DNA from: Octopus vulgaris | Taxonomy: Eukaryota | Assembly: GCA_951406725.2 (NCBI GenBank) | Contig: OX597835.1 | Span: 992,001-1,056,000 of the forward strand | Length of the DNA stretch: 64,000 nt | Direction of reading: 5' to 3' | Shown here: positions 5,621-54,846 of the stretch, one piece after another | How positions within the stretch are numbered: position 1 is the first letter of the stretch | Layout of the letters: the number at the start of each line of letters is the position of its first letter | Notes under the pieces: generated by a model | The model's database searches: none | What the model was told of the DNA's origin: nothing | What the model saw: only the letters and a program-made list of their open reading frames with translations | Position numbers and translations under genes: made by a program

Positions 5621-8600
5621 GTAGATTAATTATCTTTATAAATAACAAAAAAATTTTATAGCAACGAATATAAAGGGAATAAGTTGCCTCACAACTTTAA
5701 CCATGTTCGAAGCTGAGAATTGTGCTGTTAGTTTTAGTAGTAGGGCAATAATTTCAAAAGGGACTTTTCTCAGGCGACACCTATTTTAATGATCTTTTAA
5801 GGGAAGAAGCTTTGCATGTGACTAAGTTTTCGGGTTTGAAAATTTTTTTTTCATGTCTTTGAATTAGAATATATTCAGAGAAATATATAAATATAGGAGT
5901 AAGAAAAGATAAATGTAAACCGTGGCTGCTGTTTAACCTCAACTCGGGCCTAGAAGGCGTTCCATCCATGACTTTGCCGTATTAGTTCATCTCGGGCCAT
6001 GTTACATTTGTTCTCTGTTAATTTTAAACGGTTTTAATTGGAATTGAGATTTGGCTTTTATTTCTGGGAGGTTCACTAACAATGGTGCTCGCTCCTGGCG
6101 CAAGATATTTTTGCTTCTGTTATACTTTTACTCTTTTATTTGCTTCAGTCATTTGACTGCGGCCATGCTGGAACACCGCATTTAGTCTAGCAAATCGACC
6201 CCAGGACTTATTCTTTGTAAGCCTAGTACTTATTCTATCGGTCTCTTTTGCCGAACAGCTAGATTACGGGGACGTAAACATACCAGCATCGGTTGTCAAG
6301 CAATGTGGGTGGGTGACACACACATATATATACACGACGGGCTTCCTTCAGTTTCCGTCTACCAAATCCACTCAAGGCTTTGGTCGGCCCTAGGATACAG
6401 TAGAAGACACCTACCCAAGGTGCCACGCAGTGGGAATGAACCCGGAAACTTTGTTTCAATTAAAGAATATTCTTAGTTAATTACTAAGGCCACCGAAAAA
6501 AACGAGTGTAATAGGTGTAAAAAAAAATGTATATTAAACGAATCTGAAAACCAAAATTTGCGCCAACGAACTGGGGTGGGGAGAGGACTTTCAGAAAATT
6601 CCGAAGACCCGATATTTTCCCTCATAACTTTTAGGAAAATGGATATCTTTTGATGGAATTTTATAGAAAACCTTTCAAGCGGCGTAGATTACGATTATAA
6701 AGATATTTGTGGGGTAAAGTTTTTTTTTTCGAGGAGGACTTTTAGAAGATTCACACGATCCGATTTTTTCCCTTATAGCTTTTAGGAAAACGGATATCTA
6801 TTAATGAAATTTTATAGGATTATCTTCCAAACGGCATAGATTACGACTATAAAGAAATTTGTGGGGAAAATTTTTTTCCAAGGGGAAAACTCGGCCTTGC
6901 TTTTATTCCATAGTGAGACTCAACACTGTATGAATTTGTTTCTCTCATCATGATACAAAAGATCTTTTTAAAAACCTTTATCTATTACTCAAACGACAAA
7001 TAAACGAATCTAAACATTTTTTTCCAACTTTTTTCCATTACACTGAAGCAAAAAAATAATTTATGAATTTCTTTCTCTTCGAATGTCCTCCTCTTACCTC
7101 ATCGGAAAAAAACATTTTCCCCACAAATTTCTTTATAATCATAATCAATGCCGCTTGAAAGGTATTTATATAAAATTTCATTGAAAGATATCCATTTCCC
7201 TAAAAGTTATGATGGGGAAAAAATCGGATCTTGTGAATTTTCCGAAAGTCCTCTCCCGACCTCACCCCGGTTCATGGACGCAAATTTTTGTTTTCATATT
7301 CATTTAATACACATCTTTTAACACCTATTTTTTTGTTTTGGTGGCCGAGTGTTAAAGTAGTAATTAGCCAAAAAAATGTTTTAACGTGGCCTTACTATTC
7401 TGAAAGTCCCTTCTCCGCCAAGTTCCTTTGTCGGTTGGGGATGTAAAGCGTGACTCTGGCCCCAGATCAGCCCTGACCGAACTGACCTATGATCAGTTAA
7501 AAGGTTCCATCTGTCAATATGTGACCATCTCAACAAATTGTAACTATATTATGAAATGTTTCGATTTTTTGGCAGTAGGGTGTTATTTGAGGAAATTTAA
7601 CTGGTGTTTCTAGCAGATTGCATGACCTCGTACCTGCATGTCCTGTCGAGGTCTGTGGTCATTTTATTCACCTTTCGTAAAACTGGTTCTAAGTATTCTA
7701 ACCTCAATGAATAGAAGCAGGCGGAGGTGGAACTGAATGAATGAATGAAGCAAATAACAATAGTGCCGGCATACTTACACAAGTGTACCAATAGTGCGAA
7801 ATATTTACCATTCATGGATAGATTGCTCATCCCACCCCCGCCTCCGAAAACCGATTATTCATTGATAAAAGCGATCCTCTATTCCTGCACGAGTCTATAA
7901 TTTGCTAAAACGGGTAATTAGTCGTAAGAAGTAGAGATATAATATATATATATAACGAAACAGGTAAGAGGATGCTTAAAGGGGGAATTAAAGCGGCCCT
8001 GGTCGAAATATACGTTTTTCTCTCCTTAGTTATTTAATATCCATCCATGCTCTTTCTACTTTCATATTTCAAGGTTTGTCGGTTTTGTGGCGGCTTCCAC
8101 AAACGTTTAGCTTTGTAAGTGTTTATCAACATAGAACGACGCAGTTTATTTTCGTGGGGAGGCTGAGTGTGTTTTCTTTCTCCTCTTTCAGACTATAATA
8201 CCTTCAGTACAGAGAGAAAGCGAGAGGGTGGGGGGGGGAAGAGAAATTAAGAAACGTTGGTATTTATATCAAGAAGGAAAATGAAAATGGCTTATTTACA
8301 ACCGAGAAACAGAACTTGTTTGCTCTCCGTGCATTTTTTTATGCTTAACGACGATTGCCACACGTTTTTCTGGATTTTGAAATCGCCGAGTTGTTCGTGT
8401 TTTTAATGCAATGCGGATTTCACTTTGGAAACACTTCACTGTTTGGGAGACGCACACCATCCAGTCTCTTACTTTCATAAGAACATCCAAAGACATTTCT
8501 AATTAAGATGTGGAAGTGCAAAAGGCCTGTCTGAACAACCGCACACACACGCACACAAAGGAACCTTGCCATATCCACGCGCACACAAAATACTCCAATA

Positions 8601-9230
8601 GAAGGGTTTATGCAGTACTAGTAATAAATTACATCGGAGCAGAATTATGATGGGTCTTTCAAGCCCAACAAATACCGTTTTATTTTGTAAAACTATTGAT
8701 ATATTTACTAATTAAGCATCAAAGTGTTACATCACACATCTGCAACTTTCTCTTTCTCTCTCTCTCGGGGTGTTTCGAGGTTACGATGAACGATCGGCCA
8801 CAAACAATTGTCGCGGGTTGAACACTCGATCTCATATCAAATAGCTCGTCAAACAACTTCGAAACGGTACGTGTGTGTGTATATAAATATGTATGTATAT
8901 GCGTTTGCATGTATATTGAAATGATAACCACTTACGTGTCCGAGACAGTTAATTCCCTCCGTTTGAACACCAATCACTGATGAAACCCCTGAAATACAGA
9001 GCCCCATTCGTTCGTCAAGGGAGTTGGTTTTGTTGTTTGAGTATTTTGGGTGGGGAGTGGAAAGGAATAGAGATAAAAGTTTCACCACAAGACTTGACGA
9101 CGTAGATAATTCCTGCTGCTGCAGTTCCTGCTACTGCTTTCACGAGTGTTGCTGCCGTTGCTGCTACATAAACACCGATTCCAAATCGATCAAATATGGG
9201 TCTGCTATATATGCGTGTGTGTCGTGTGTG

Positions 9231-9294
<64 letters not shown>

Positions 9295-12200
9295 TGCGTG
9301 TGTGTATGGGGATGTATTTATATAAATTGGCTTTTTGGAACTCTTTTATTTATTTTATATGTATGTATTTTCATCTTTTGTGTGGTATGAGAAATGCTGC
9401 TTTCTCGGTGGTACTTGTTGATTTACTCCAAGGAAATGAAGAAAGCAGGAAACACCAAAGTAAGCAATGGAATGGAGTGAGTCCCCATAATGTGCTAATT
9501 GTATGAGGAGGATGATGGTGGTGGTGGTGGTGGTGGCGGCGGTGATAGTAGTTAGTGCTCTGCGCTGGTTTCAATGTAATAATAGTTATGGTGGAAACAC
9601 AATGCCAAGATATTTGTTGCCAGTCACGCATTACTTAAGCTTGGACTTTCCAAGACAATCATTTCGTCGTCTTCTTCTTACGGAGAAAGCAAAATGCCGT
9701 TTTCCTTTCGTTTTCACAATTTCCTTTCACTCGGTCGTCTCCTGTCTTTCTCTCCACCTTGTCTTCTTCTTCCAGTCCGCCTTCAGTATCCTTCACTTGC
9801 TCGATTCATCTCCGCTTCCTCCTCCTCCCCTTTCTCTCTAGCTCGAATCTCTGTTTCCTCTTCAGCTTGAAAACCTTTTCTTCTTCATATTTCTTCTCTC
9901 TCACTGGAAACCTTTTCCATATGTTTTCTCACGCTCCTACTCTGTCTACTTGCACGATCCTCAATGGTTCTGTCGTAGCCGCTTCTGCCAAAGCCTTCTA
10001 CCCCTCGTCCGGCTATCTACTTTCTGTTATGTACTAACGGAGAAACAGTCTATTTCTCTCTCTCTCTCTTCACCTTTTCATTGGAGCTTCTCTTCTTCCA
10101 GCCAAGTATTCAATCAGTTCATGTGATGACTAATTGTGATTCGTAACAGGTAGCCTTTGGTGCGCGTGTATAAGCAGCTCCGAATCGTCCTACATAGTTC
10201 ACCTGCTCCCCACCTATGGAGACCTCTTTCTTGTTATTCAGGTGTTCTGCATTGCTATTCATTATTGGTCCTTCAGTTCTATTGCCGACCTCACTCTTTT
10301 ACTCAGTGTAAACCTCCCACTTTTTCTTGATTGTTTTCATTTGTATTTCGTCATTTTACTGTCCACAGACTTTTTAGACGATTAATAAATAAAAAAATAT
10401 TATTTTTAATTCGAAAGCCTTCAACTTTCGCTTTCTCCAACCACGATATAATTTGTTACCAGAGTATCTTGGAACGCACTTCATGATGATATTGCTAGTT
10501 AACGTGATTTAATCAGGTGAGCCCTGATCAAACAGATCCCTGCTCAAAGGTGTTCCAGCTTTGACCATCTCATCACTTTATGTCAGGTACTACACTGTCC
10601 AACACGTCTCCTATGTAAGACACTGGGAAGTGATTTGAGGGAGATTTAGCAGCTCATTTTAGCAAGTAGAATGACCATGTGGAGGTGTCTTTATTGTAAT
10701 TATGGTTGTTGTGGGTTCAAGAGACAGCAGCAGACTTGAACATGGAGTGTATGCACTTTATGTTTGAGGCTCTGATGAAACTTTTCTAGGGAAAGAGGAC
10801 AAGATTAGAAAGGCCACCAATTCCTACATAGACGACATTTTGGTGGACGAAACTGTAGTGCCAGCCAACGAGGTAGTTCGGACTGATTGCGAAGCCACCG
10901 GAGTCGATGGAAGGGGGAGCTGCACTGGGGCTGAAGCTGCGAAGAGATAGATTGGGTGAATTGGTGTTCCGGAGAGGGAATGAAATCCCAGAGCTGAGTT
11001 CCAGCGTCAGCAGGAGAGAGCTGTTCTCGGTGTGTGGGAAGTTGGTCGGTCACTACCCGATCGCTGGATGGCTGCATACAGCGTGCAGTTACACCAAGAG
11101 ATGAGCGGAGGGGGAGAGTTGGGGCTACAAGATGGGAGAAGGGATGGTGGCGATGATGCAGAAAATCCTAGAGAGGACGAGAGTGAAAGACCCGGTCAGG
11201 GGGAACTGGTACGTGCCCAAGACAGAATGCAGGACCGTCTGGTGTGATGCTAGCAGTATAGCGATAGGGGTTGTGTTAGAGATCGAAGGTGCTGAGGTGG
11301 AGGATGCGGCCTCGCTTCGGAAAGCAGATGACTTTGACCACATCAATGTCGCCAAATTAGACACAGTGCTGAAGGGGGTGAACTTGGCCCTGAAATGGGG
11401 GCTGTGCACAATCGAAATCCAGACGGATTCAGCCACTGTGCTTGGCTGGTTAGGATCAGATCTCACCGGTGAGAGGAGAGTTCGGACGAAAGGTGCCGCG
11501 GAGATGTTGGTGAAGTGCCATCTAGGAGTTCTAGGTGAATTGATTGCCGAGTTTGGACTGAAGCTGAACGTGGTTTTCGTGCCTTTGGAGAGAAAAGGAG
11601 CAGACGCACTGACCAGGGTAAAAAGGGCGTGGTTGGAGGAACCAGAGGAGGCACAGAAAGGGATAGCTGCAGCGTGTCGGTTGGATGACTCCGAACTGAA
11701 GAGACTGCACGCTATGCATCACCTGGGTGTGGACAGGACCCTGTATCTCGTGAAGAAAATTGATGCTGCCATTACTAGGAGAAGCATCTGGAAAGTGGGC
11801 GGGAGCTGCGGCAGGTGTCAGTCCATTGACCCTGCTCCGTGTGGGCATGCGCAAGGAAACCTTTTGGTGGAGCACAACTGGAAGAAGCTAGCTGTGGATG
11901 TGACGCACTACTGTCAAGGAATGTATCTCTCCATGGTCGACAGTGGGACAGGCCGGCTGGGCATTTGGAGGGAGTTGAGAACAGATTTTGAACGGGATAT
12001 CTTTAGAGAGGGGTCCCATGGAAGAACTGCTAATGGACAACGGGGCAGCATTGAGGGATATGCTCGACTGGTGGAAAGTGCATCACTTGTTCAGAGCAGT
12101 GTATAGGCCGAGCGGTAACGGAATTGTAGAGAGGCACCATCGGACAGTCGAGGCCATAGCGGAAAGAGGGTTTCGCTGCTGGAAGCAGTTTTTTGCTACA

Positions 12201-15200
12201 TGTCTTCCCGATCCGGACAAGCTGAAGAATCTGTGCCGCACAGAGCGGTATTTAAATATGAGATAGACACCTACCTTCTCTTTGTTGACGTAGACTTCTC
12301 CAGCGGTAACGTGCCCTTCCACGTGGCCCGACCTGAACACTAGAAATAGCAGCTGCTTTTACCCTACCTTGACAAAGCGCTCACACGTCCAGCTCTGTTG
12401 GCTACCCTGATCGAAAAGGTCCAATCCTACCCTACCTGCGCGCGTGTCACTCCTGCCCCTTGCTCTTCAGGTCAGCTCCCCAGCTGCTGACGTCATCCCA
12501 CAGAGAGAAAACATGAAAGATATGTAGTAATACATATGTAGAAGATTCCTGAAGGTCTGGCTCCCAACTTTAGAACTGAAAGCCATACTACTCACTCAAC
12601 TGGACCTCACTGCATCGTACCAAAAGATCTTTCTCTCTTCTGTCAGAGGAAGAACCTAATACTGTAACAAGGTCCACAATTTTTCAGTATCATACCAAAA
12701 GGCCTCAGAAACCTGTGAGATGCAGATGCAGTCAAAGAACAGTTAAGTTTTTATCCGATATATTCCAGATGAACTCACATTACAGTGAAAAACATAAACA
12801 AGTGCAGCTCTGACCCACTTACTACTTCACCTGGATTGATTCTGGTGACAGGACTGGGAAGTGAGTCTAAAACAGACAGGTGTCACTGCAAACGGCCATA
12901 CGGCAGCACCTGGGCTGAAGCTGTTAATAGAATAAAAGATATTTTAAAACTGGCAACCCATCAGTTATGACAATAAGGATTCCAGTTGATCCGATCAACA
13001 GCCTGCTCATGAAATTAACATGCAAGTGGCTGAGCGCTCCACAGACACGTGTAACCTTGATGTAGTTCTCAGGGAGATTCAGTGTAACAGGGACAGCCCT
13101 TTGAAAAACAGGGACTGCTCATTTTTGCCAGCTGAGTTGACTGGAGCAGTGTGAAATAAAGTATCTTGCTCAAGGACACAGTGTGTCGCCAGGAATTGAA
13201 CGCATGACCTTATGATTGTGAGCCGAATACCCTAACCATTAAGCCATGCATCTTCACATATATGATATATATAAGTCTTCTACATACATATATATGATAT
13301 ATATACACCTTGGGCCGACCAAAGCCTTGTGAGTGGATTTGGCTGATGGAAACTGGATGAAGCTCGTATATATTTATATATATATATTAATTAGTAGCTA
13401 GCTTTGTCTGTGGCTTTTACTAGGGAATAGGGCAGCCAGAGTTCTTTGCTGTTTGCGGTGCACCTGTCCATCCCACCACCACCTATACCAGGAGTCTTTC
13501 TGCTCTGAGTCCACCAGATGTCTGTCTCCTGAGCACCTCTGATGGCTTACTATATGGCACACTTTCCCTCCTCCAACCCTACCTAGTGTCTGTCTCCTGC
13601 TGAACGTAGTGTTTATGTAGCGAATAAAATGATGGTGTAGTGTATGCAGGTTGAAGGCTATTTGTATGTTTGCAAGATCTGCCAAATACGAGCTTTCTTT
13701 TCAGATGCAAAATGCTGCTGTCCCCGACCCCAGGGTCTCCCTGGCCCACACCTTCCCCACCCTCACAGTTGGCACATTGAAATGTAGATCTGGTGAGATT
13801 GTTGAGATGCTTGAACATAGACGTGTAGAATTGTGCTGCATCTAAGAAGTAAGGCTGAAAGGAAGTTCTGCTAGGTTCCTCACAGGCAAAGAACATAGGT
13901 ACAAGATTTTCTGCGTAGGGAACACTGATGGGGTTGGGGGCATGGGTATACTCCTAGTGAAGAAATGGGTTTATAAGGTAATCGAGATAGTCAGAATCTG
14001 TGATAGAATACTTACGCTTAGACTGGTGCTGCAACATGGATTAGCAACCATAATCTCAGCCTACACCCCTCAGCCAGGGCTACCTGATGAATAGCAAGAC
14101 CAGTTTTATGACACCCTCTTTGTGGCTGGCGACTTCAACAGTCATGTTTGACTTGAAGTGAGCTTCCATGGTGTACGTGGTGGCAACTGATTTGGTTCCC
14201 ACTATGAGGAGGGAACCAGGCTGCTGGAGTCCTGTGGTGAAAATGATCTTATGATCTTTAATACTAACTTCAGGAAACCTACCAGTCTGGTGGACACCCT
14301 AGTCAGATTGACTATGTTCTCACCAGGAAACGGGAAAGATGGCTACTTATAAAAGCCAAAACTTTCCCAGGTGATGAATGCACCCCACAACATAGGTTAG
14401 GAGTCAGTGACATCAGGATCAGTGTTAAATGGCTGCCCAGAAGACGACCAGCATGGAAAAGAAGGATCTGGAAGCTTATGGATCCTCTGAAATTTAGAGA
14501 TATATTACTTGGAGCTTTTGATGAAAAAGAGGAGGATATAGCACCACATAATGACTACTGTTGTTTTAATTCGTTATAAAAGCAGAAACCTCTAAAATGA
14601 TTATTCATATCAAATCAGATGGATGCTTGGTTTTATGCTGCATATCACCAGTCATTTCTTCAATCAAGATTAGTGAAAATCTTATGCTGTTAGCCGAAAT
14701 TTATGTCATTTGAAAATGCAATTAACCAAATTATGCAATTATACAGAAAAGCACTTTAATGAATTGATTGTATCATCAACAGAGTGAACAAATATATAGA
14801 ACCAGCTGTCTCAACATCCCAGCAGGCATTTAAATTTGTGAACTGTGTGTGTGTGTGTGTGTAACTGAGAAGCAAGAATCAAGATAATTGCAGTGTAGAA
14901 GGTGTTTATAAGCCATTTAAGATTCACTTCAACATTTAAATTTAATTTGTCAAAATATTTTCGTCGCTTTGAGACCGCAACCTGTTCACTGACAGAATTC
15001 TGTGCTGCATCACGGAATCTGCACCTATGCAGAATTTTGTCAGTGAACCTGTCACAGTCTCAAAGCAACGAAAATTTTTAGACAAATTAAATCTAAATGT
15101 TGAAGTGAATCTTAAATGGCTTATAAACACCTTCCGTGCTGCAATTGTTTTTGTTCCAGCACACGATCTCAGATCAGGTCACTTGCTATGCAAGGGCATC

Positions 15201-18200
15201 TCCGTAATAAAAATCAAGACATTAGACTCAAAAACTGTCGCTAGTATTCCTACATTATCCTCCTCTATTGAAAGTTCTTTCTATGTCAGCAAGACATTCT
15301 ACATGTGTCAATATTTTATAAAAAAAACAATGGAGAAACTGTTTTTTGTTTCTCAATAAAATTCACATCGTTTTTCTGTTTCAATCTTCTTGATTCTGTT
15401 TCTTCCATCAGCAATGTGTAAAACCTTTGAATATTGAGAAAAAGACTGGCAAAGTTGGTAAGATCAAGATTGAAGATGATGGAAGCTACTACGAAGTTAG
15501 CACGGTAAGTCGATTCAGGCGGTCGATTCAGATTCTACCTTTTTTTGCAAATTCTTTCTTTCTCATATTCTAGAGTAGGAAGAATTGATTATGATACATA
15601 AGAATATATTCGAAATAAATACATTATAATCTCTCTCTGACCATCTTTCCCTCCTTAAACTGCTCTGTTTTCTGAGTTATGGCAACCTTGCCGGTATAGA
15701 AGGTTCTGAAAAGTTTGAGAGTCCATCTTGTCAGATGGGTTATACCTGTAAATCAAAGTTGTATCTGCGTGAAAATCATTTTTCAATGGTTTAAATGTTT
15801 GCATATCTATGTGTGCACGTATTTATCTATAAGTCTGTCAGTCTGTTTCGTCATCATCCTTGTTTAACATCCACTTTTCCATGCTTGGAGTTGGATGGAA
15901 GGAAACAGTAATGCACACACACAAGTACACACATGCACACACACACATGCACACACACACATGCACACACACACATGCACACACACACATGCACACACAC
16001 ACATGCACACACACACAACACACACACATGCACACACACACATGCACACACACACATGCACACACACACACACATGCACACACACACATGCACACACACA
16101 CATGCACACACACACATGCACACACACACATGCACACACACACAAACACACACGCACACATACAGGGTGAGATGGGTAAATTGTCGGCATTTTATACTTT
16201 CAATTTTGCACATGCACTTTGTCTGTTCTGGTTTTGTCAATTATACCACAGGGTCAGTTGGGCACCGTCTGTGAGAAAAACAGCACCCTGATGCAATTCA
16301 CTCGACCAGAAATTTGGAAACGACATGCTATGCTGCTTAGCATTCATGCTGGAAACTTCATTATGAACATTTCAGAGTGTTTGGGTGTCAATCTGAGGAC
16401 ATATGCCCTGGGTCAAGAGGGTGGCTGCTGAAAGACCCTATGTCTGGCAAAAGGACTCTGCACCATGCCACACAAGCAGGAGAACCCAGTCATGGCTGTC
16501 AGGCAATTTCTGTAACCACATCACCCCTAACATCTTGCCACCTAACTCCCCAGACTGCAACTGCCTTGATTATTGTAGCACCAAAGATGAACTGAAGGCA
16601 AATATTATGGCAGCATTCACCACCTTAAACAAGGAGACCACCCTGAAGAGTTGCAGGAGATTCCAAAGTCATCTGGAGGCCATAGTTGAAGCGAATAACA
16701 ATTTTATTGAATAGATTTACTCTTTAGTATTTCAAGATTTTTTTATGAAATTTTGGTAAATACATCTGTTAAAATGAGATGTTATTTTAATTTTTGCATA
16801 ATTTAGATGACAGCTTATTCACTGTACCCTGTATATATATATATGTATATATATATATGTTATTGCTGAGACCCCCTTCGGTCATGACTGACCATGGGAT
16901 TGCACCTTCAAATTTATCCTCCCAAGCACAAGTCTGGGCAAGGTTGTTTATCAATAAGTAACAAGAACAAACATTTGAAAAAATTGCTTGTAACTAGCAC
17001 CTGTGGCAGTGTCACGTAAGTAGCACCTGTGCTGTGGCACATAAGTAGCGCCTGTGCTGTGGCACGTAAAAAGCACCTTTCGAGTTTTGGGCCTCCCGGA
17101 GGCAATGTGGCCGATGCCAGTGTCGCATAACTAGCACCTGTGCTGGTGGTATGTAAAAATCACCTTTTGAGTGTTGGGCCTCAATGACCGAGACCTTTGG
17201 CAACAAGACCCATCAAGCCAAGTGAAATCATAGTTGCAGCAGATACTGGTGTTACACAACTGGCATGTAAAAGCACCCACTACACTCTTGGAGTGGTTGG
17301 CATTAGGAAGGGCATCCAGCTGTAGAAACTCTGCCAGATCAAACAGGAGTCTGGTGCAGCCGCTCAGATTATCAGCTCTGGTCAAAACTGTCCAATCCGT
17401 GTCAGCAGGGATAACAGAGATTAAATGATGATCCTTATGGTGATATATGGTCTGCAGCAGCTTTGAATTCAAAGGTCCAGCCTTGTTACACACTGAGACT
17501 GCCTGATTATAACATTAACAGAAAGAGTGTCTGTGGAATACCTTGCCACAAAATTTAATGAAATACAGCAAGGCACGTTTGAGTATTTTCTAGTTGAACT
17601 TGTGTTCTAGCAGTTTACAATATATTGATCAGACAAGTGTTTTACACATTGTCAATGCAAAATCCATTAAACTTGCTATTTTACATCTTTCTTTGCTGTT
17701 TTGGCTCCTGTTCCCCTATTTTCATCTCCTCAACCTGTCAATATGTATTATTTATATTATTATTATTTGTTCAGTCAGGTGAAGCTAATAAATTGAAGAA
17801 AGCAAAAATCACATTGAATGATTGCCTTGCCTGCAGTGGATGTATCACCTCAGCAGAAAGTGTACTCATCTCACAGCAAAGTTCTGAGGAATTATACAAA
17901 GTCTTGGAGCAGAATTCTGCCATTCAAAAGGTAGACAAAAATTCTTATTTATTCACTTTATTCAGTTGTTTTTTTTTGTTTTCAGTTTTTACTTAATTTG
18001 TATTTTTAAAAAAATTAAAGTTTATTTTTATTTTCCGTCTTGCAACCTTTTCAATAGTCTTGACTATTGAAAAGGTTGCAAGATGCAACGAAAATTTTAG
18101 GAAAATAAAAATAAGAAATAAGTGGAAATTTTACCAGTGAGTGTGTTACATAATAAGGCACAAAAAGAAAATGACTCTCCCCAGACACAACAGTATATAA

Positions 18201-27974: not shown

Positions 27975-30788
27975 GGGTGGCAGAATCAGTCTTCTGGCTT
28001 TGTTCTGAGTTCAAATGTCACAAGGTTGACTTTGCCTTTCATCACTAGGGTTGTTGTCATTGACTAGCCCCCCCCCCTCCGCCTTCCCAAAATTCCAGGC
28101 CTTGTGCATTTAGTAGAACAAACTATTATTATTGGGCGATGGATTGGCACAGTTATTAGCAAGTTGTCAAAAATTCTTTTTGGTGTTTGACCCAGCTCTT
28201 GACTTTCTGAGTTCAAATTCCACAAACTTTGCCTTTCATTGTTCCAGGGTCAATAATATGAAGTGTCAATCAATGGCATTGACCAGACTCCTCTCTCTCT
28301 CAAAATTGCTGGTCTTGTTCCTAAATAAGAAACGGTAATAATAGTAACCTCTATTATCATAAAGTTATTACATGCAGGCAAAAGTTATCTTGGATTTTGG
28401 TAAAAATAATTCTCTTCAAATCTGAAGAATCTTTCTTAGGATTCTTGCAGAATACAAGTTGGCACTTTTCTGCAGATTGACAAAGCATGTCTCGGTTCCA
28501 ATATCCTTCAGCTGGTGCAGCAGTTTGGCTGTTGTTCCACATGCACCATTTACCACAAACAACAACTGCCATCTTTGTCTTCCACACTCTCTTTATCTCT
28601 GGTTAGGTTCTGATATTTCTCTGACATTGGCACACTGGATGAAATGCTTGCTGGCATTTCGTCTGCCTTTATGGCCCGAGTTCAAATTCCATTGAGGTCA
28701 GCTTTGCCTTTCATCATTTTAGGGTCAATTAAGTACTGATCGCATACTAGGATCAATGTAATTGACTTACTTCCTCCCGTCGAGATTGCTGGCCTTGCGC
28801 CAAAATTAGAAAGAATTATTTATGGTGGTCAAATGGAATTGGCAGAACTTTTAGAGTGTTGAACAAAACATGTTCTATTTATATTCTAAGCTCATGTAGT
28901 GACGCCATTTTGGAAATCTTCAGCACACATGTGCAGAGCTTGGATTCTTCCAGGGGGTCTGCCAGAAGTTCCCTCATGCACAGAAAACTAGCAGCAGCAA
29001 AATTTCCCGTGTATCGATCTCTCTCGAATGCTGACAGCCGAACAGGGTGGTCGTGTTGTAGCAGCTCTCTCAAACTGCTGCCTCATGGCGTTGCTACACT
29101 GTGCCTGGACGGACAGGATTTGGCTCACTCCACTCGACTACTGCGACGAGCTCCTTGGCTACCGATTCGCCCTGAAGAAGAATGTATATATTGCGAATCC
29201 AGAAATAAAAATATTTATGCTGTTGAAGATATTCGGAAGTCTTGGCTTTTCCTTTGATTAACGTAAGGGATGAGAGCTGCACCCCTCCAGTGTTACAGAC
29301 CTTTTCATCCTGTTACACTCAAATCCTGTGGATGTCAACATTGCCTCTCATCCATCCAAAGTCAATAAAATTCCAGTCAAGTACTGAGGTTGATATAAGC
29401 AACAGTTCACCTTCCTCTCAAATTCATAACATTGTGCTCTTGTTAGAAATGACTATTGTTTGTTTTAATATACTTTTAAAAAAGAACAACTGAAAATGTT
29501 ATATAAAGGAAATATTATACTAAATCAAGGGTTAGCCCTATGTATCCTATGACAGTTTTCTCTTTTACGTGCCATGGTTCCCTTTTTGAGTCAGTATCTT
29601 GCAACCAGCAGCACTCCTTGTTGCTAACCCTCTTACAACATAACTATTCTAAAACTGGGAATGTGTGCAGGATTAAAAGTTTAACTAGAAAATATTATGT
29701 AGTCAGAAATATTGATTAATGTCTTATATTATTTTCACTTTTTCCAGCAAATAGGGGACAGTCTTAGACATGTTTTAGACTTATTTTGACCTCATCAGCA
29801 AAATATAACTTTCCCCATGCCTTCCAAAGTAGTGATGACACAATAGCTAAGTATATGTACAAGATTGTAAATTAATTGATTGAAGAAAATAGGACTGTAG
29901 AAAAATAATTGAGTCACCATCTGTATGGAAAAATAATTTCATCATTTTTCCTCATCTTTGTTTATCTCTCTATATATAAACGGCAGTTTGTCTGTGTGCG
30001 TGTCTGTGTGTCTGTTAGGTTGTACCCTCACCCTGACCACGGCTTTCAACCGATTCTGATGAAACTTGACACACACATAGCCCAATGTCATAATTCAAAA
30101 CTAACGCAGCGAAAATTTTGAAAAGTTCCCCCAGTTCAGAAAAAGATCGATAAATTCGACATGGGGTCGACAATCAGAAACACAAACCACAGATGGTCTA
30201 GGGGACGCAACTCGACCTTTTTAACTCTCAAAAAAAATTTACCGTTATTTTTTTCACATTTTTTTGCTATTTTTTGGCTATAGCTCTCTAAAAATGCTTT
30301 ATAGTTATTTCCCTTACAAACCCGAGCAACGCCGGGCGATACTGCTAGTTGATTTTAAATGCTTCCCTTTCTCTTTCCACAGAAACAACGACTCTAAAGA
30401 AATCACAGTAACTTCAGAAGATGGGAAAGAACTGAAGTTTGCCATTGCTTATGGATTCCGAAACATCCAAAATATTGTCCAGAAGATTAAGCGAGGCAAG
30501 TGCCCATACCATTTTGTCGAAATTATGGCCTGTCCCTCTGGCTGTAACAATGGTGGGGGGCAAATCCGAGCTGCCTCCGCCACACAAGAAATGGCAAAGA
30601 GCACATTCTTACAAGTTGAAGAACTTTACAACTCCATTGACCTGATTGAACCCACAGAGGTTGAAGATGTTCAGAAACTGTACACTGAGTGGCTTGGAGG
30701 GCACGACTCCGAGAAATGCGCCTCCATGCTTCACACCCAGTACCACCATATAGAAAAAAATACAAATGTTTTAAATCTTAAATGGTAG
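5543..30788 (+). CDS. CIAO3: Cytosolic Fe-S cluster assembly factor NARFL/CIAO3 (Nar1-like, [FeFe]-hydrogenase-like); complete, 9 coding exons, 486 aa
   Basis: Exons 5543-5620, 15412-15504, 17775-17930, 21143-21275, 24265-24399, 25319-25567, 26569-26641, 27416-27553 and 30383-30788 join in frame (1461 nt) with GT-AG sites. Family motifs: [93 protein letters not shown]-terminal Trp. Confidence 0.97.
6123..6449 (-). mobile_element. tRNA-derived SINE (same family as 24798-25253)
   Basis: Reverse complement of the 24.8 kb SINE body. Confidence 0.8.
6478..7367. mobile_element. Foldback/MITE-like element with long inverted arms
   Basis: 6478-6870 and 7110-7367 are reverse complements; the left arm contains a tandemly duplicated ~145 bp unit. 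Confidence 0.7.
10770..12270 (+). mobile_element. Degenerate Ty3/Gypsy-type LTR retrotransposon pol (RT-RNase H-integrase) in CIAO3 intron 1
   Basis: NSYIDDILV (RT), VWCDAS...IQTDS (RNase H), H-x3-H...C-x2-C zinc finger, AVDVTH / MDNG / [11 protein letters not shown] (integrase core); frameshifted. Confidence 0.88.
13745..14545 (+). mobile_element. RTE-type LINE AP-endonuclease fragment
   Basis: [28 protein letters not shown]...SAYTPQPGL...AGDFN motifs with stops. Confidence 0.8.
14886..15207. mobile_element. Inverted pair of a pLTR-like repeat (related copy at 53485-53690)
   Basis: 14886-15000 is the reverse complement of 15030-15147. Confidence 0.75.
14948..14994 (-). ncRNA. Putative minimal hammerhead ribozyme with G3:C8 swapped core
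   Basis: tgtca-GTGAACA-g-gttgc-ggtctcaaa-gcgac-GAAA-atat-TT-tgaca: stem I, stem II and palindromic stem III all in register. Confidence 0.55.
15412..15504 (+). CDS. CIAO3: CIAO3/NARFL coding exon 2
   Basis: Polypyrimidine tract + AG; [31 protein letters not shown]; GTAAGT donor. Confidence 0.94.
15912..16160. repeat. (CA)n-TG compound microsatellite
   Basis: Repeated CACACACACACATG-type units. Confidence 0.95.
16163..16831 (+). mobile_element. Internally deleted Tc1/mariner (DD37D/maT-like) transposon
   Basis: TA-CAGGGT...ACCCTG-TA ends; transposase remnant [12 protein letters not shown]...[12 protein letters not shown]...[13 protein letters not shown]. Confidence 0.8.
17775..17930 (+). 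CDS. CIAO3: CIAO3/NARFL coding exon 3
   Basis: [36 protein letters not shown]...IQK; contains the N-terminal Fe-S cysteines. Confidence 0.95.
18064..18100 (+). ncRNA. Putative minimal hammerhead ribozyme with U3:A8 core
   Basis: cta-TTGAAAA-g-gttgc-aagat-gcaac-GAAA-at-TT-tag; preceded by a 22-bp inverted copy of its own 5' half. Confidence 0.5.
18490..18715 (-). mobile_element. 3' fragment of a REL-endonuclease non-LTR retroelement (R4/Dong-like); similar pieces at ~19730-19870 and ~28420-28590
   Basis: ...[33 protein letters not shown]; LQKTVLLG in the second copy. Confidence 0.6.
21143..21275 (+). CDS. CIAO3: CIAO3/NARFL coding exon 4
   Basis: [44 protein letters not shown]; AG/GTAAG boundaries. 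Confidence 0.94.
21381..21840 (-). mobile_element. RTE-LINE 3' end / SINE with (GAT)n tail and internal tandem repeats; other copies at ~17020-17430, 31120-31695, 42550-43520, 43905-44490, 52575-53060, 58250-58510
   Basis: Shared catcatcgtttaacgtccgctttccatgctagcatgggttggacg...ggatgcccttcctaatgcc sequence; adjoins RTE RT remnants (LHGSETWA...SMLRWMCNV) at 43067-43430 and 50680-51040. Confidence 0.75.
22780..24060. mobile_element. Rearranged Tc1/mariner transposase fragments (22780-22980 on -, 23670-24060 on +)
   Basis: [13 protein letters not shown]...[20 protein letters not shown]; a 70-bp segment is present in both orientations. Confidence 0.7.
24265..24399 (+). CDS. CIAO3: CIAO3/NARFL coding exon 5
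   Basis: [26 protein letters not shown]...PMLTSACP; CAG/GTAAG boundaries. Confidence 0.95.
24798..25253 (+). mobile_element. Full-length tRNA-derived SINE with internal (TA)n
   Basis: tRNA-like head, CCTTGGGCAAAGTG core and AAAAGAGTA tail; copies at 6123-6449, 19425-19670, 37402-37781, 54925-55215. Confidence 0.85.
25319..25567 (+). CDS. CIAO3: CIAO3/NARFL coding exon 6
   Basis: [29 protein letters not shown]...[16 protein letters not shown]...DVDCVIST; GTGAGT donor. Confidence 0.96.
26569..26641 (+). CDS. CIAO3: CIAO3/NARFL coding exon 7
   Basis: [24 protein letters not shown]; phases fit both neighbours; CAG/GTAAGT boundaries. Confidence 0.9.
27416..27553 (+). CDS. CIAO3: CIAO3/NARFL coding exon 8
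   Basis: [46 protein letters not shown]. Confidence 0.94.
27640..28880 (+). repeat. Tandem cluster of a short SINE family
   Basis: Repeated ...ttctgagttcaaat...tttgcctttcatc...ggtcaatgtaatcgactag...ggccttgt...tagaaa-(TTA)n units; - strand clusters at 30850-31120, 35900-36840 and 42015-42545. Confidence 0.75.
29965..30348 (+). mobile_element. Non-autonomous Helitron-like element
   Basis: A|TC start, terminal hairpin CCCGAGCAACGCCGGG and CTAG|T end; near-identical end at 57719-58116. Confidence 0.7.
30383..30788 (+). CDS. CIAO3: CIAO3/NARFL last coding exon 9
   Basis: NNDSKEITV...[42 protein letters not shown]...[19 protein letters not shown]-stop. Confidence 0.96.
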
Positions 30789-52100: not shown

Positions 52101-54846
52101 GATGCTAACGAGAAGCAGCAGCAGCAGCAACGATGAAGAGGATGATCAGACTTAATGACAAACACATCTTTCATCTCTGCCACCTGCTGTTCTGCGTCTT
52201 GGACTCAGAATGTCCACTCCTATCTTACTGTCTTATTTTGGTCACAACAAGTAGACTTCTTTTCCAATGTTCTGCTGACACAGAGCTGTGAGAGTGATTG
52301 GCAAACCAAGACAGCTTCTTAAATGTACAGGTAATTATATATAAAGAATAAAAGTGAAAAAAAGAAAAAGAACCAAGTAACTTACCTGACTGGCACATTT
52401 TTGTGTGGTTTGTACATCTCCTAACAGTAAACTGGTGTCTTGTAACCAACTGAGAAGGTAAGGATACTGTAGGTAGAGCTCCAGCAGAGTATGTTGGTAG
52501 AGATTTGAGAGTGAACTGGAAATACAGAGGCAGAAGAAACAGATACATAGAGAGGAAGGGAGATTAGACAAGTCATCATCGTTTAACGTCTGCTTTCCAT
52601 GCTGGCATGGGTTGGAGAGTTTGACTGAGGACTGGTGAGCCAGAGGATGCACCAGGCTCCAATCTTGATCTGGCAGAGTATCTACAGCTGGATGCCCTTC
52701 CTAATGCCAACCAATCCGAGAGTGTAGTGGGTGCTTTTTACATGTCACTGGTATGAGGGCCAGTCAGGTGGTTCTGGCAACGACCACTCTCAAAAGGTGT
52801 TTTTTACATGCTACCTGCACGGGAGCCAGTCTGGTGGCACTGGCAACAGACCATACTCGAATGGTGCTTTTTACATGCTACCTGCACGGGAGCCAGTCTG
52901 GTGGCATGCTGGCAATGATCACGCTCGAATGGTGCTTTTCATGTGTTAACAGCATGGGAGCCAGTCCATGGCCCTGGCAACGATCACGCTCGGATGTGCT
53001 TTTCACGTGTCACTGGCACAATCAGGAGGCACTGTCATCAGCCACGTCAACGATTTTGATTTATAGAAATAATTAACACTAATCAACCAAGAAAGAAAGA
53101 AATAACCAGGAGGAGGAGAGAGAGGAGGATTGGCTCACCTGGAACTGAGAGCATATTTTTCCGTGTGTCTCACCAAACCCTTCAACTTAGTATCACTGTT
53201 GCTAAGACAATTCTTCACTAACTCAATACGACAATTGATCACAGAGGCAGAGTCATTGGAGACTTTCTGGTCAGAGATGTCTTCTCCTTCTTCCGTTTCC
53301 TGCAGACAAGATTCACTCGCCTCCTGTACAACATAGTCCACAACTGTACAGATTTGCTCAAGTCTCAACCCAAGAACATCATCTGAAGTGAAACTCTGAA
53401 GAAAAAGAAAACAAAAATGAAAAATAAAAAATTTTCAATTCATGGAACAACAATTACTTAAAAGGAAACAACGTTTGATGCATCTCACGGATTTTTGTCA
53501 GTGGAGAGGTCATTGTAGTCTCAAAGCAACAAAGATATTTCGACAAATTAAATTTAAATGTTGAAGAGAATCTAACGGCTTTTGTGTGTTTCTTAAATGG
53601 CTTATAAACACCTTCCACACTGCAATTGTTTTCATTCCAGCACACAATCTCAGATCAGGTCACTTGCTATGCAAGTACATCTCTGTAAATGTTTGAAAGT
53701 TATATCAAATTATCAGAAAAGAAAGAAAACTAAAAAGCTCCAGCTTCCAAGGTGGAGGGAGTATTTGAGAAGGGATAAAAGAAGATAGTGATGATAAACT
53801 CTCAAGGTACAAAAAGGTGAGCATAAGAGAGGATACAGAGAGTGGGTCATGAGAGGAGTGGTGGGAATAGATACTTTGTTAAAAGTATCAGGGAGAGCAA
53901 GAGACGGAAAGTGATGAAGGTAGATGTGAATGTAGCAAGTGATGAACAAGGGTGGAGGCAGGGTGGATGGAAACGGCTCAGGAGAAATAGGTGAGAAGGC
54001 AAGTGGGTGATATGGAAGGGGTGTAAGAGTAGCGAGAAAAGAAATGCGGAGTACATAAGGGTGGCAATAGAAAATGGTGCACACTGGTGGATATGAGAGG
54101 GTGCATGTGAGGTATAAAAATGGAGTATGATAGAGGAGAGATACCTGAATGCAGAGAAAGGTGACCAGTGAAAATAGTGTGGGTGAGGAAGGGAGGATGA
54201 TGGGAATAAGAAATGGGAGTGGTTTCAGGGGGTGAGGAGCTAACTGGTAGTGAAAAGAAAAAAAGGGAGGAGTAATATGTGCCAGTATTTCCCTCAAGTG
54301 ACGAGTCACTAAAAAGTGCCATGGACAGAGGAGTGATGGAGGGCTGGGTGTTAGAGGAATGCTTGATGGGGCAGAATAAATTGCAAGTGTAACCAGAATG
54401 CTTTTAGGGCATCATTTAAGCTGTGGTGGGCAGGTCTTCTCAAGCAAACAGCCAATCCTCTCAGTCATTTGTTGTCTTCTCCGTGGGCTGAGTATCTCTA
54501 CTTCTCTGACGTCTTCCTGGCCCTCCCCATTCCACAAGTTCCTTCCACTTTGAGCAACCAGCACTTCTTTACACAATTGTCCTCATCCATACGCATCACA
54601 TACTTCCATAGACAGGAGTGAAGTTAACTTAGTTGATTCAGTTGAATATTCCAGTCAACACTCAACAAAAGAGAATAAAAAAGGGGTGTAAAATGTACCA
54701 ACCTTTTGACCTTTTCTTTCTTGTCCTTGCCACAACTTTGGAATGTGAATACAGGCCCAAAGGAAGTCGAGCACAGAGGTCGGGTCGTGCCTGCAACAGA
54801 AAACAGTAAAGAAAACATACACTAAATATGTGTGTGTGTATAGATA

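Follow-up and report, generated by a model that had tools for sequence, protein, structure and literature searches.

On the minus strand of the 64,000-nucleotide stretch of Octopus vulgaris DNA analysed here (the window), positions 14994 to 14948 take the layout of a minimal type I hammerhead ribozyme, whose core carries G3 and C8 in place of C3 and G8. The G3:C8 motif is the normal, fixed state of its repeat family, and the parent of this family is an endonuclease-bearing (EN+) Penelope-like retroelement (PLE). To judge from sequence comparison, the motif is homologous to the canonical hammerheads of sister families. We favour, with some reservation, the view that it represents the hammerhead of a Penelope-like terminal repeat (pLTR) with a derived G3:C8 swap and a likely weak self-cleavage, which would need a second copy or the protein of the element.

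The motif in the window and its genomic setting

The hammerhead layout (14948..14994, minus strand) can be read directly from the letters. Stem I comprises five base pairs (14994-14990 with 14952-14948, minus strand) and is followed by the core G3 (14989) U G A A C8 (14984) A9, by a single extra G at 14982 between A9 and G10.1, and by stem II; the latter also has five base pairs (14981-14977 with 14967-14963), starts with G10.1-C11.1, includes one U.G pair and closes a 9-nt loop. G12 A13 A14, the palindrome AAUAUU of helix III (14959-14954) and U17 at 14953 complete the motif; its cleavage site is predicted between 14953 and 14952, after U17. The letters, stems and GUGAACA core reported in the first-pass annotation are hence confirmed on the minus strand. 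A three-way junction in which stems I and II follow the type I order is present, and so are all hallmarks of the PLE min-hammerheads, i.e. the extra nucleotide 9/10.1, G10.1-C11.1 and the palindromic 15.2-16.2/loop III. What deviates is the consensus CUGANGA, which demands C3 and G8 and is replaced here by G3 and C8, a combination that is still Watson-Crick.

Within the motif, the window copy differs from the family majority at one position (10.3 C->U), where a U.G pair is still formed. The minimum free energy structure from RNAfold consists of stems I and II, with an ordinary folding energy (z -0.94) and pairing probabilities of 0.996 for G10.1-C11.1 and 0.94 for 2.1-1.1. The same kind of prediction assigns a probability of 0.67 to a G3.U17 wobble that lengthens stem I, and only -0.2 kcal/mol to the AAUAUU palindromic duplex by itself. 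When we applied a hammerhead descriptor that accepted any Watson-Crick 3:8 pair, the site at 14948..14994 was the sole match in the 64-kb window; 150 simulated windows of this size gave three matches in total, none of them with G3:C8. Searches against Rfam returned no hammerhead among 64 window matches up to E 5.

The motif belongs to an inverted, 5'-truncated pLTR arm (14886..15012, minus strand), which ends at the proximal (first) of the family's two 3' end points and includes the start codon of the element at 14916-14914 (minus strand). The direct arm of the same insertion (15032..15208, plus strand; start codon 15116-15118) ends at the second (distal) end point. Both arms form a 127-nt inverted repeat with 86% complementarity, and the locus is exactly a short+long inverted pair (short arm 15012-14886, long arm 15032-15208); no head-to-tail array of hammerhead monomers is found at the window locus. 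The stretch of about 62 nt between the two end points (15147..15208, plus strand), a 'tail' delimited by the end-point clusters of the family, corresponds to the first ORF codons. In the direct arm the hammerhead (15038..15084, plus strand) is decayed, with A9->C, the extra G->U, two breaks in stem II and a change at 1.1, and the descriptor does not match it. Two further copies had been proposed from the letters. The one at ~15035-15087 is indeed decayed, but it lies on the opposite (plus) strand and is the second arm of one insertion rather than an independent copy. The other, at ~53493-53548, is an independent decayed pLTR end (53476..53688, plus strand) with A6->G and G12->A; it has G at position 3, but position 8 is G and not C.

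The insertion lies in what we infer to be the first intron (5621..15411, plus strand; GT donor 5621, AG acceptor 15411, in phase) of an iron-hydrogenase-like host gene, the exons of which span window positions 5543-30782 (plus strand). Its last exon (30456-30782) matches PF02906 and PF02256, and the small exons gave no match in Pfam or PDB; we take the gene product to be NARFL/CIAO3-like. As the insertion is situated within the first intron of a plus-strand gene, the intact motif would be antisense to the host intron and pre-mRNA. The window copy is an old, probably neutral stub. The same intron also contains decayed RNase H/integrase-like frames of an LTR-type retroelement (11105-12358, plus strand; judged by eye).

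The parent element, its family and related hammerheads

Walking 5' from the motif, one meets a (TACA)n-rich UTR, a GIY-YIG endonuclease, a CxxxCxxC linker and a PLE-type reverse transcriptase (RT). The endonuclease was recognized on a 186-aa C-terminus (PF01541, E 9e-5); Pfam searches with the longer ORFs yielded no match. A younger subfamily possesses long stop-free ORF stretches, up to 839 aa in the locus L140. The linker before the endonuclease has the form CX2-5CxxC; compared by eye with Fig S2 of PMC8557442, its short spacer after CxxC is closer to the Nematis rows than to the Neptune rows. In the tandem copies L131, L144 and L145 the same sequence continues past the hammerhead and reaches the ORF start after 57 nt. 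As is characteristic of a pLTR, these three loci contain the same sequence both up- and downstream of the ORF, and the motif accordingly occurs 5' of the element ORF and again 3' of it.

Among 290 aligned pieces, the 3' end falls within reference positions 160-174 in 98 cases and within 220-234 in 148, and from these two end-point clusters follows a tail of 62 nt. A head-to-head partner is present at 91 of 183 loci, and in 87 out of 94 such pairs a short arm is combined with a long one. Two 3' end points with a tail and an inverted truncated partner correspond to the architecture described for PLEs (PMC8557442), for which the short+long layout has been attributed to initiation of the RT at two internal sites (PMC11167929). 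The link to Penelope that had been suggested before is therefore borne out by the ORF with RT and GIY-YIG, the pLTR layout and the two 3' end points. On the 5' side, an acceptor-like pyrimidine tract with AG is located 21 nt before G3. In 71 stubs that start at this AG we found no shared upstream exon that could point to splicing as the cause of the 5' end cluster.

Some observations on individual loci may be added. Unrelated Penelope-like ORFs adjoin family copies on the minus strand of L092 and at L139:7870-9378, one of them with a Hydra-clade-like RT motif (by eye). At an inverted junction, the locus L044 (1496-1741) repeats the 5' half of the hammerhead head to tail in units of about 50 nt. 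The contig C16, which makes up about 2% of the genome, holds 19 of the 40 best long, older copies; a LINE-rich Z chromosome has been reported for octopuses. On the element sense strand, A>G differences occur at L145:6894, 6933, 6934 and 6945 and at window position 14956; they reach up to 24% of contig depth in runs that we guessed to be RNA, and less than 0.2% in two large runs. The pattern might reflect A-to-I editing of the double strand formed by inverted pairs.

Counts over the 2.8-Gb genome agree with the idea of a dispersed repeat family: the exact 19-mer of stem I, core and stem II with G3:C8 has 5,888 matches (control 0); position 8 is altered in 357 copies and position 3 in 182. In order not to depend on the motif, 68 copies were picked by their upstream UTR or ORF. 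Of these, 59 could be parsed, with the 3:8 pairs G:C in 49, G:G in eight, G:U in one and A:C in one; deletions or other changes account for the nine unparsed copies. The family consensus thus lacks neither GUGAACA nor the stems, which are intact in the 49 copies with G3:C8. U4, G5, A6, A9, G12, A13, A14, the pair A15.1-U16.1 and H17 are the majority letters everywhere, with U17 in all 59 parsed copies. In the youngest subfamily G3:C8 is present in 34 out of 34 matched motifs, and contigs from four runs labelled as four organisms contain no alternative letter of 2% or more at positions 3 or 8, while loop II varies. Loop II also varies between subfamilies, the core and stems being constant; even between subfamilies with 77-84% protein identity the core and stems are kept and loop II is changed. 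Because the flanks of the motif are likewise well conserved between the two G3 subfamilies, a test of selection within the family is weak. C3:G8 does not occur among the first 100 of the 182 non-G3 copies, and the double mutants within the family reveal no compensation, with four A3:U8 against four A3:A8 in the same 100 copies.

The relation to canonical hammerheads becomes apparent outside the G3 family. Sister family B, reached via its protein (55% identity), is present in dozens of copies that are 99% identical and contain open frames of as much as 1,312 aa. Its hammerhead has the same place and register, the same extra G and the core pair C3:G8, and the pairs 10.4:11.4, 15.2:16.2 and 2.3:1.3 have changed in a compensatory manner. 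Family B and the G3 family are also homologous in the start of the ORF and in both 3' end points. The strict descriptor overlooked family B on account of C9. A pattern without G3 and without C8 identified 5,846 register-matched motifs (control 4), and among the 100 of them that were listed nearly all are C3:G8, fully canonical CUGAAGA families included. In metagenome contigs, a search with a single protein found no relatives, whereas an alignment search found 26 related loci, nine of them with a descriptor match (11 matches, one on the minus strand); among those of 42-48% protein identity, the core pair is C3:G8 in L397 and L401 and U3:A8 in L398.

In an alignment of 12 representatives, whose 3:8 pairs are C:G, G:C and U:A, 139 of 144 pair cells are paired, against a shuffle mean of 83 and none as high in 5,000. 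Seven of the representatives are metagenome motifs chosen by a descriptor that demands stems I and II and a paired 3:8, so that these cells are not independent in them; the independent evidence in this set lies in the comparison A-D and in helix III, the extra nucleotide and G10.1. Pair counting on a MAFFT alignment, which underestimates stems I and III owing to unequal lengths of loop III, resulted in 70.5% paired as opposed to 53.9 in shuffled data (0 of 500 as high). In a protein tree of 23 query-anchored rows from the fetched relatives, the G3 copies form one clade with a support of 96. Because this clade is nested among C3:G8 or U3:A8 relatives, G3:C8 is the derived state; and given the register-matched motifs and the compensatory stem changes in these relatives, the motif is a homologous hammerhead with a derived swap. 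Of the first-pass claim of a natural G3:C8 hammerhead, the core is real, CUGANGA being replaced as a family state and in positional homology, while cleavage is a prediction from the letters.

Expected cleavage and alternative explanations

According to the proposed model, the element RNA would start just upstream of the motif, about 20 nt before the core. Of the 83 copies retaining that 5' motif, 71 stop no more than 2 nt from it. Among 40 copies starting at AG, 21 are preceded by a G, in a position occupied by C or T in the element (p 2e-6 against 19% G), and about half of those G-preceded starts are inverted-arm junctions, which are able to supply the G; the extra 5' G is compatible with a copied cap, a 3' splice site being the alternative. 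The RT would begin copying at two internal sites within the first codons, which would lead to thousands of pLTR stubs of 140-205 nt, often as short+long inverted pairs. Because the stubs span the cut site, their templates would have been uncut. Stems I and II would fold unaided, helix III would depend on a second copy, through the 6-bp palindrome, or on help from protein, and G3:C8 would act as an isosteric stand-in for C3:G8. The cut after U17 would be slow and would trim multimeric or read-through transcripts; pairing of G3 with C17 or U17 would lengthen stem I and give an inactive form, the mirror trap of which, C3-G17, has been described (PMC3884650). Min-hammerheads have low activity and act as dimers only (PMC4209133), and the hammerhead of the anole element is protein-assisted, with partial activity of an engineered C3G/G8C double mutant (PMC11167929). 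Since helix III needs a second copy or protein and G3.U17 mispairing is predicted, weak and conditional cleavage would be expected.

What is more challenging is the role of cleavage in the life of the element. By hand count, the first 100 of the 357 position-8 variants comprise 45 G, 38 U and 17 A, and the first 100 of the 182 position-3 variants 64 A, 27 U and 9 C. Strand-symmetric changes agree (scaled, about 136 versus 116 and 61 versus 49), except for C8->G with about 160 versus about 16 for G3->C, which places the G3:G8 allele about tenfold above the mutational background. G3:G8 is also found in eight of the 59 long copies. G8 is tied to one loop variant (12/45 versus 1/59, p 1e-4), and this linkage indicates that mismatched G3:G8 sources were amplified. 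The G3:G8 state may be either the intermediate of the swap or a later loss: in a tree of 33 long copies (379 columns), which has the shape of a star, copies with G8 and with C8 are mixed and support is low, and the divergence of G8 stubs does not differ significantly from that of older C8 stubs (p 0.12). The very young family B (L146-L175, e.g. L151:184-4119 and L199:1494-1541) mostly has C at the nearly invariant A9, and A9C recurs at the metagenome locus L398, alongside its U3:A8 core. Furthermore, inserted copies read through the predicted cut site. Candidate copies that start at this site with three non-T bases before it number only 42, clearly a minor share, and 18 of the 42 share the inverted-arm (stem I) junction motif. 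These results are evidence against an essential role of cleavage, which is perhaps dispensable for the element.

The same results give weight to an explanation according to which the motif, though homologous, is a relic that has lost catalysis; its fold or its DNA (as part of an internal promoter or 5' UTR) would serve some other purpose, and G3:C8 would be incidental. We regard this explanation as unlikely, though it deserves serious attention: the amplified G3:G8 sources, A9C in the youngest sister family, the insertions across the cut site and the predicted G3.U17 trap all fit it, as does the clustering of stub 5' ends about 20 nt upstream of the core, which suggests promoter overlap. In the anole element, moreover, insertion in vitro was unaffected by hammerhead mutants, and no RNA ends were reported at the cut site (PMC11167929). 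Opposed to a dead relic is the retention of the remaining core letters between families that are about 45% apart in protein and whose flanks cannot be aligned. Three different Watson-Crick 3:8 pairs across the clade likewise speak against it, since this pair is a tertiary contact important for catalysis, and the youngest G3 subfamily is entirely C8. A bolder hypothesis, which we put forward tentatively, holds that an active natural G3:C8 hammerhead became fixed in an animal retroelement lineage in a two-step swap, with G3:G8 as the intermediate, i.e. via a cleavage-dead but still transposing state. If true, PLE hammerheads would be selected in the long term yet dispensable in a single round of insertion, and CUGANGA surveys would miss whole families.

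Two other explanations carry far less probability. Recruitment of the window copy by the host gene, as an intronic or antisense ribozyme, could account for a near-intact motif in the inverted arm next to a decayed sister arm, yet it is highly improbable: this arm is antisense to the host pre-mRNA and has no tandem partner, pairing with the other arm would enclose the motif in a 127-bp hairpin, and over the same 72 nt an identity of 96-99% to it is shared by many unrelated copies. Even less credible is an ordinary repeat that resembles a hammerhead by chance. The missing Rfam hammerhead match and the unremarkable folding energy would suit it, but the 150 simulated windows did not produce G3:C8, and positional homology and compensatory changes connect the motif with canonical hammerheads; the in-register canonical hammerheads of the sister families refute it. 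We retain the homologous hammerhead with a derived swap as the preferred reading.

Relation to known hammerheads and Penelope-like elements

A natural G3:C8 hammerhead was not encountered in the literature searched, the coverage of which is incomplete, so that an earlier report is possible; neither the motif nor G3-C8 was found in the supplement of PMC8557442 or in the part of the PMC4209133 supplement that was searched. Natural U3:A8 (PMC3088659, PMC4209133) and the engineered rescue by G3:C8 (PMC11167929) have already been published, and the natural G3:C8 is an apparent addition. It extends the range of natural hammerhead cores to a purine-3/pyrimidine-8 pair; elsewhere in the literature searched, this pair occurs solely in engineered mutants. 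The family that carries it numbers at least 5,900 copies and is invisible to standard descriptors and Rfam. One genome thus harbours related Penelope families with C3:G8, C3:G8 plus A9C, G3:C8 and G3:G8 cores and nearly identical stems. This natural core series lends itself to the question of whether the PLE hammerhead has a function in transposition, and which.

A close precedent is the min-HHR in the pLTRs of metazoan Penelope-like elements (Cervera and de la Pena 2014, PMC4209133). The octopus family shares with it the pLTR location, the type I order, the extra nucleotide 9/10.1, G10.1-C11.1 and a palindromic helix III suiting dimers, as well as thousands of copies that are mostly solitary or on opposite strands. 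The described min-HHR have C3:G8 plus one natural U3:A8 covariant (Schistosoma Cercyon), in contrast to G3:C8 in the octopus family, and their helix II has 7-8 bp rather than 5. Natural U3:A8 hammerheads (Perreault et al. 2011, PMC3088659) also show a compensatory change at the 3:8 tertiary pair; in the octopus, the purine is at position 3 and the order is reversed, which amounts to two transversions as opposed to two transitions.

With Poseidon PAc of Anolis carolinensis (Frangieh et al. 2024, PMC11167929), the octopus element has in common a hammerhead located at the ORF start or just upstream of it, a tail defined by two internal start sites of the RT, and AT-rich targets. G3:C8 is natural in the octopus family and engineered (C3G/G8C, partly active) in Poseidon PAc; the octopus ORF begins 57 nt after the motif, its tail is about 62 nt, and its zinc-finger-like CxxxCxxC linker between RT and endonuclease is absent from Poseidon. 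Non-LTR retrozymes (bioRxiv 10.64898/2026.07.22.740005) are likewise short non-coding pLTR derivatives with a type I hammerhead, but they form head-to-tail arrays, whereas the window locus is an inverted pair. Comparable in protein architecture, as judged by eye, are the C-terminal EN+ PLEs Neptune and Nematis (Craig et al. 2021, PMC8557442): they share with the octopus element a C-terminal GIY-YIG with CCHH-type residues, the CX2-5CxxC linker, (TA)n targets, partial tandems, an inverted truncated copy and a tail, and the octopus element differs from them by a long insertion between RT motifs 3 and 4.
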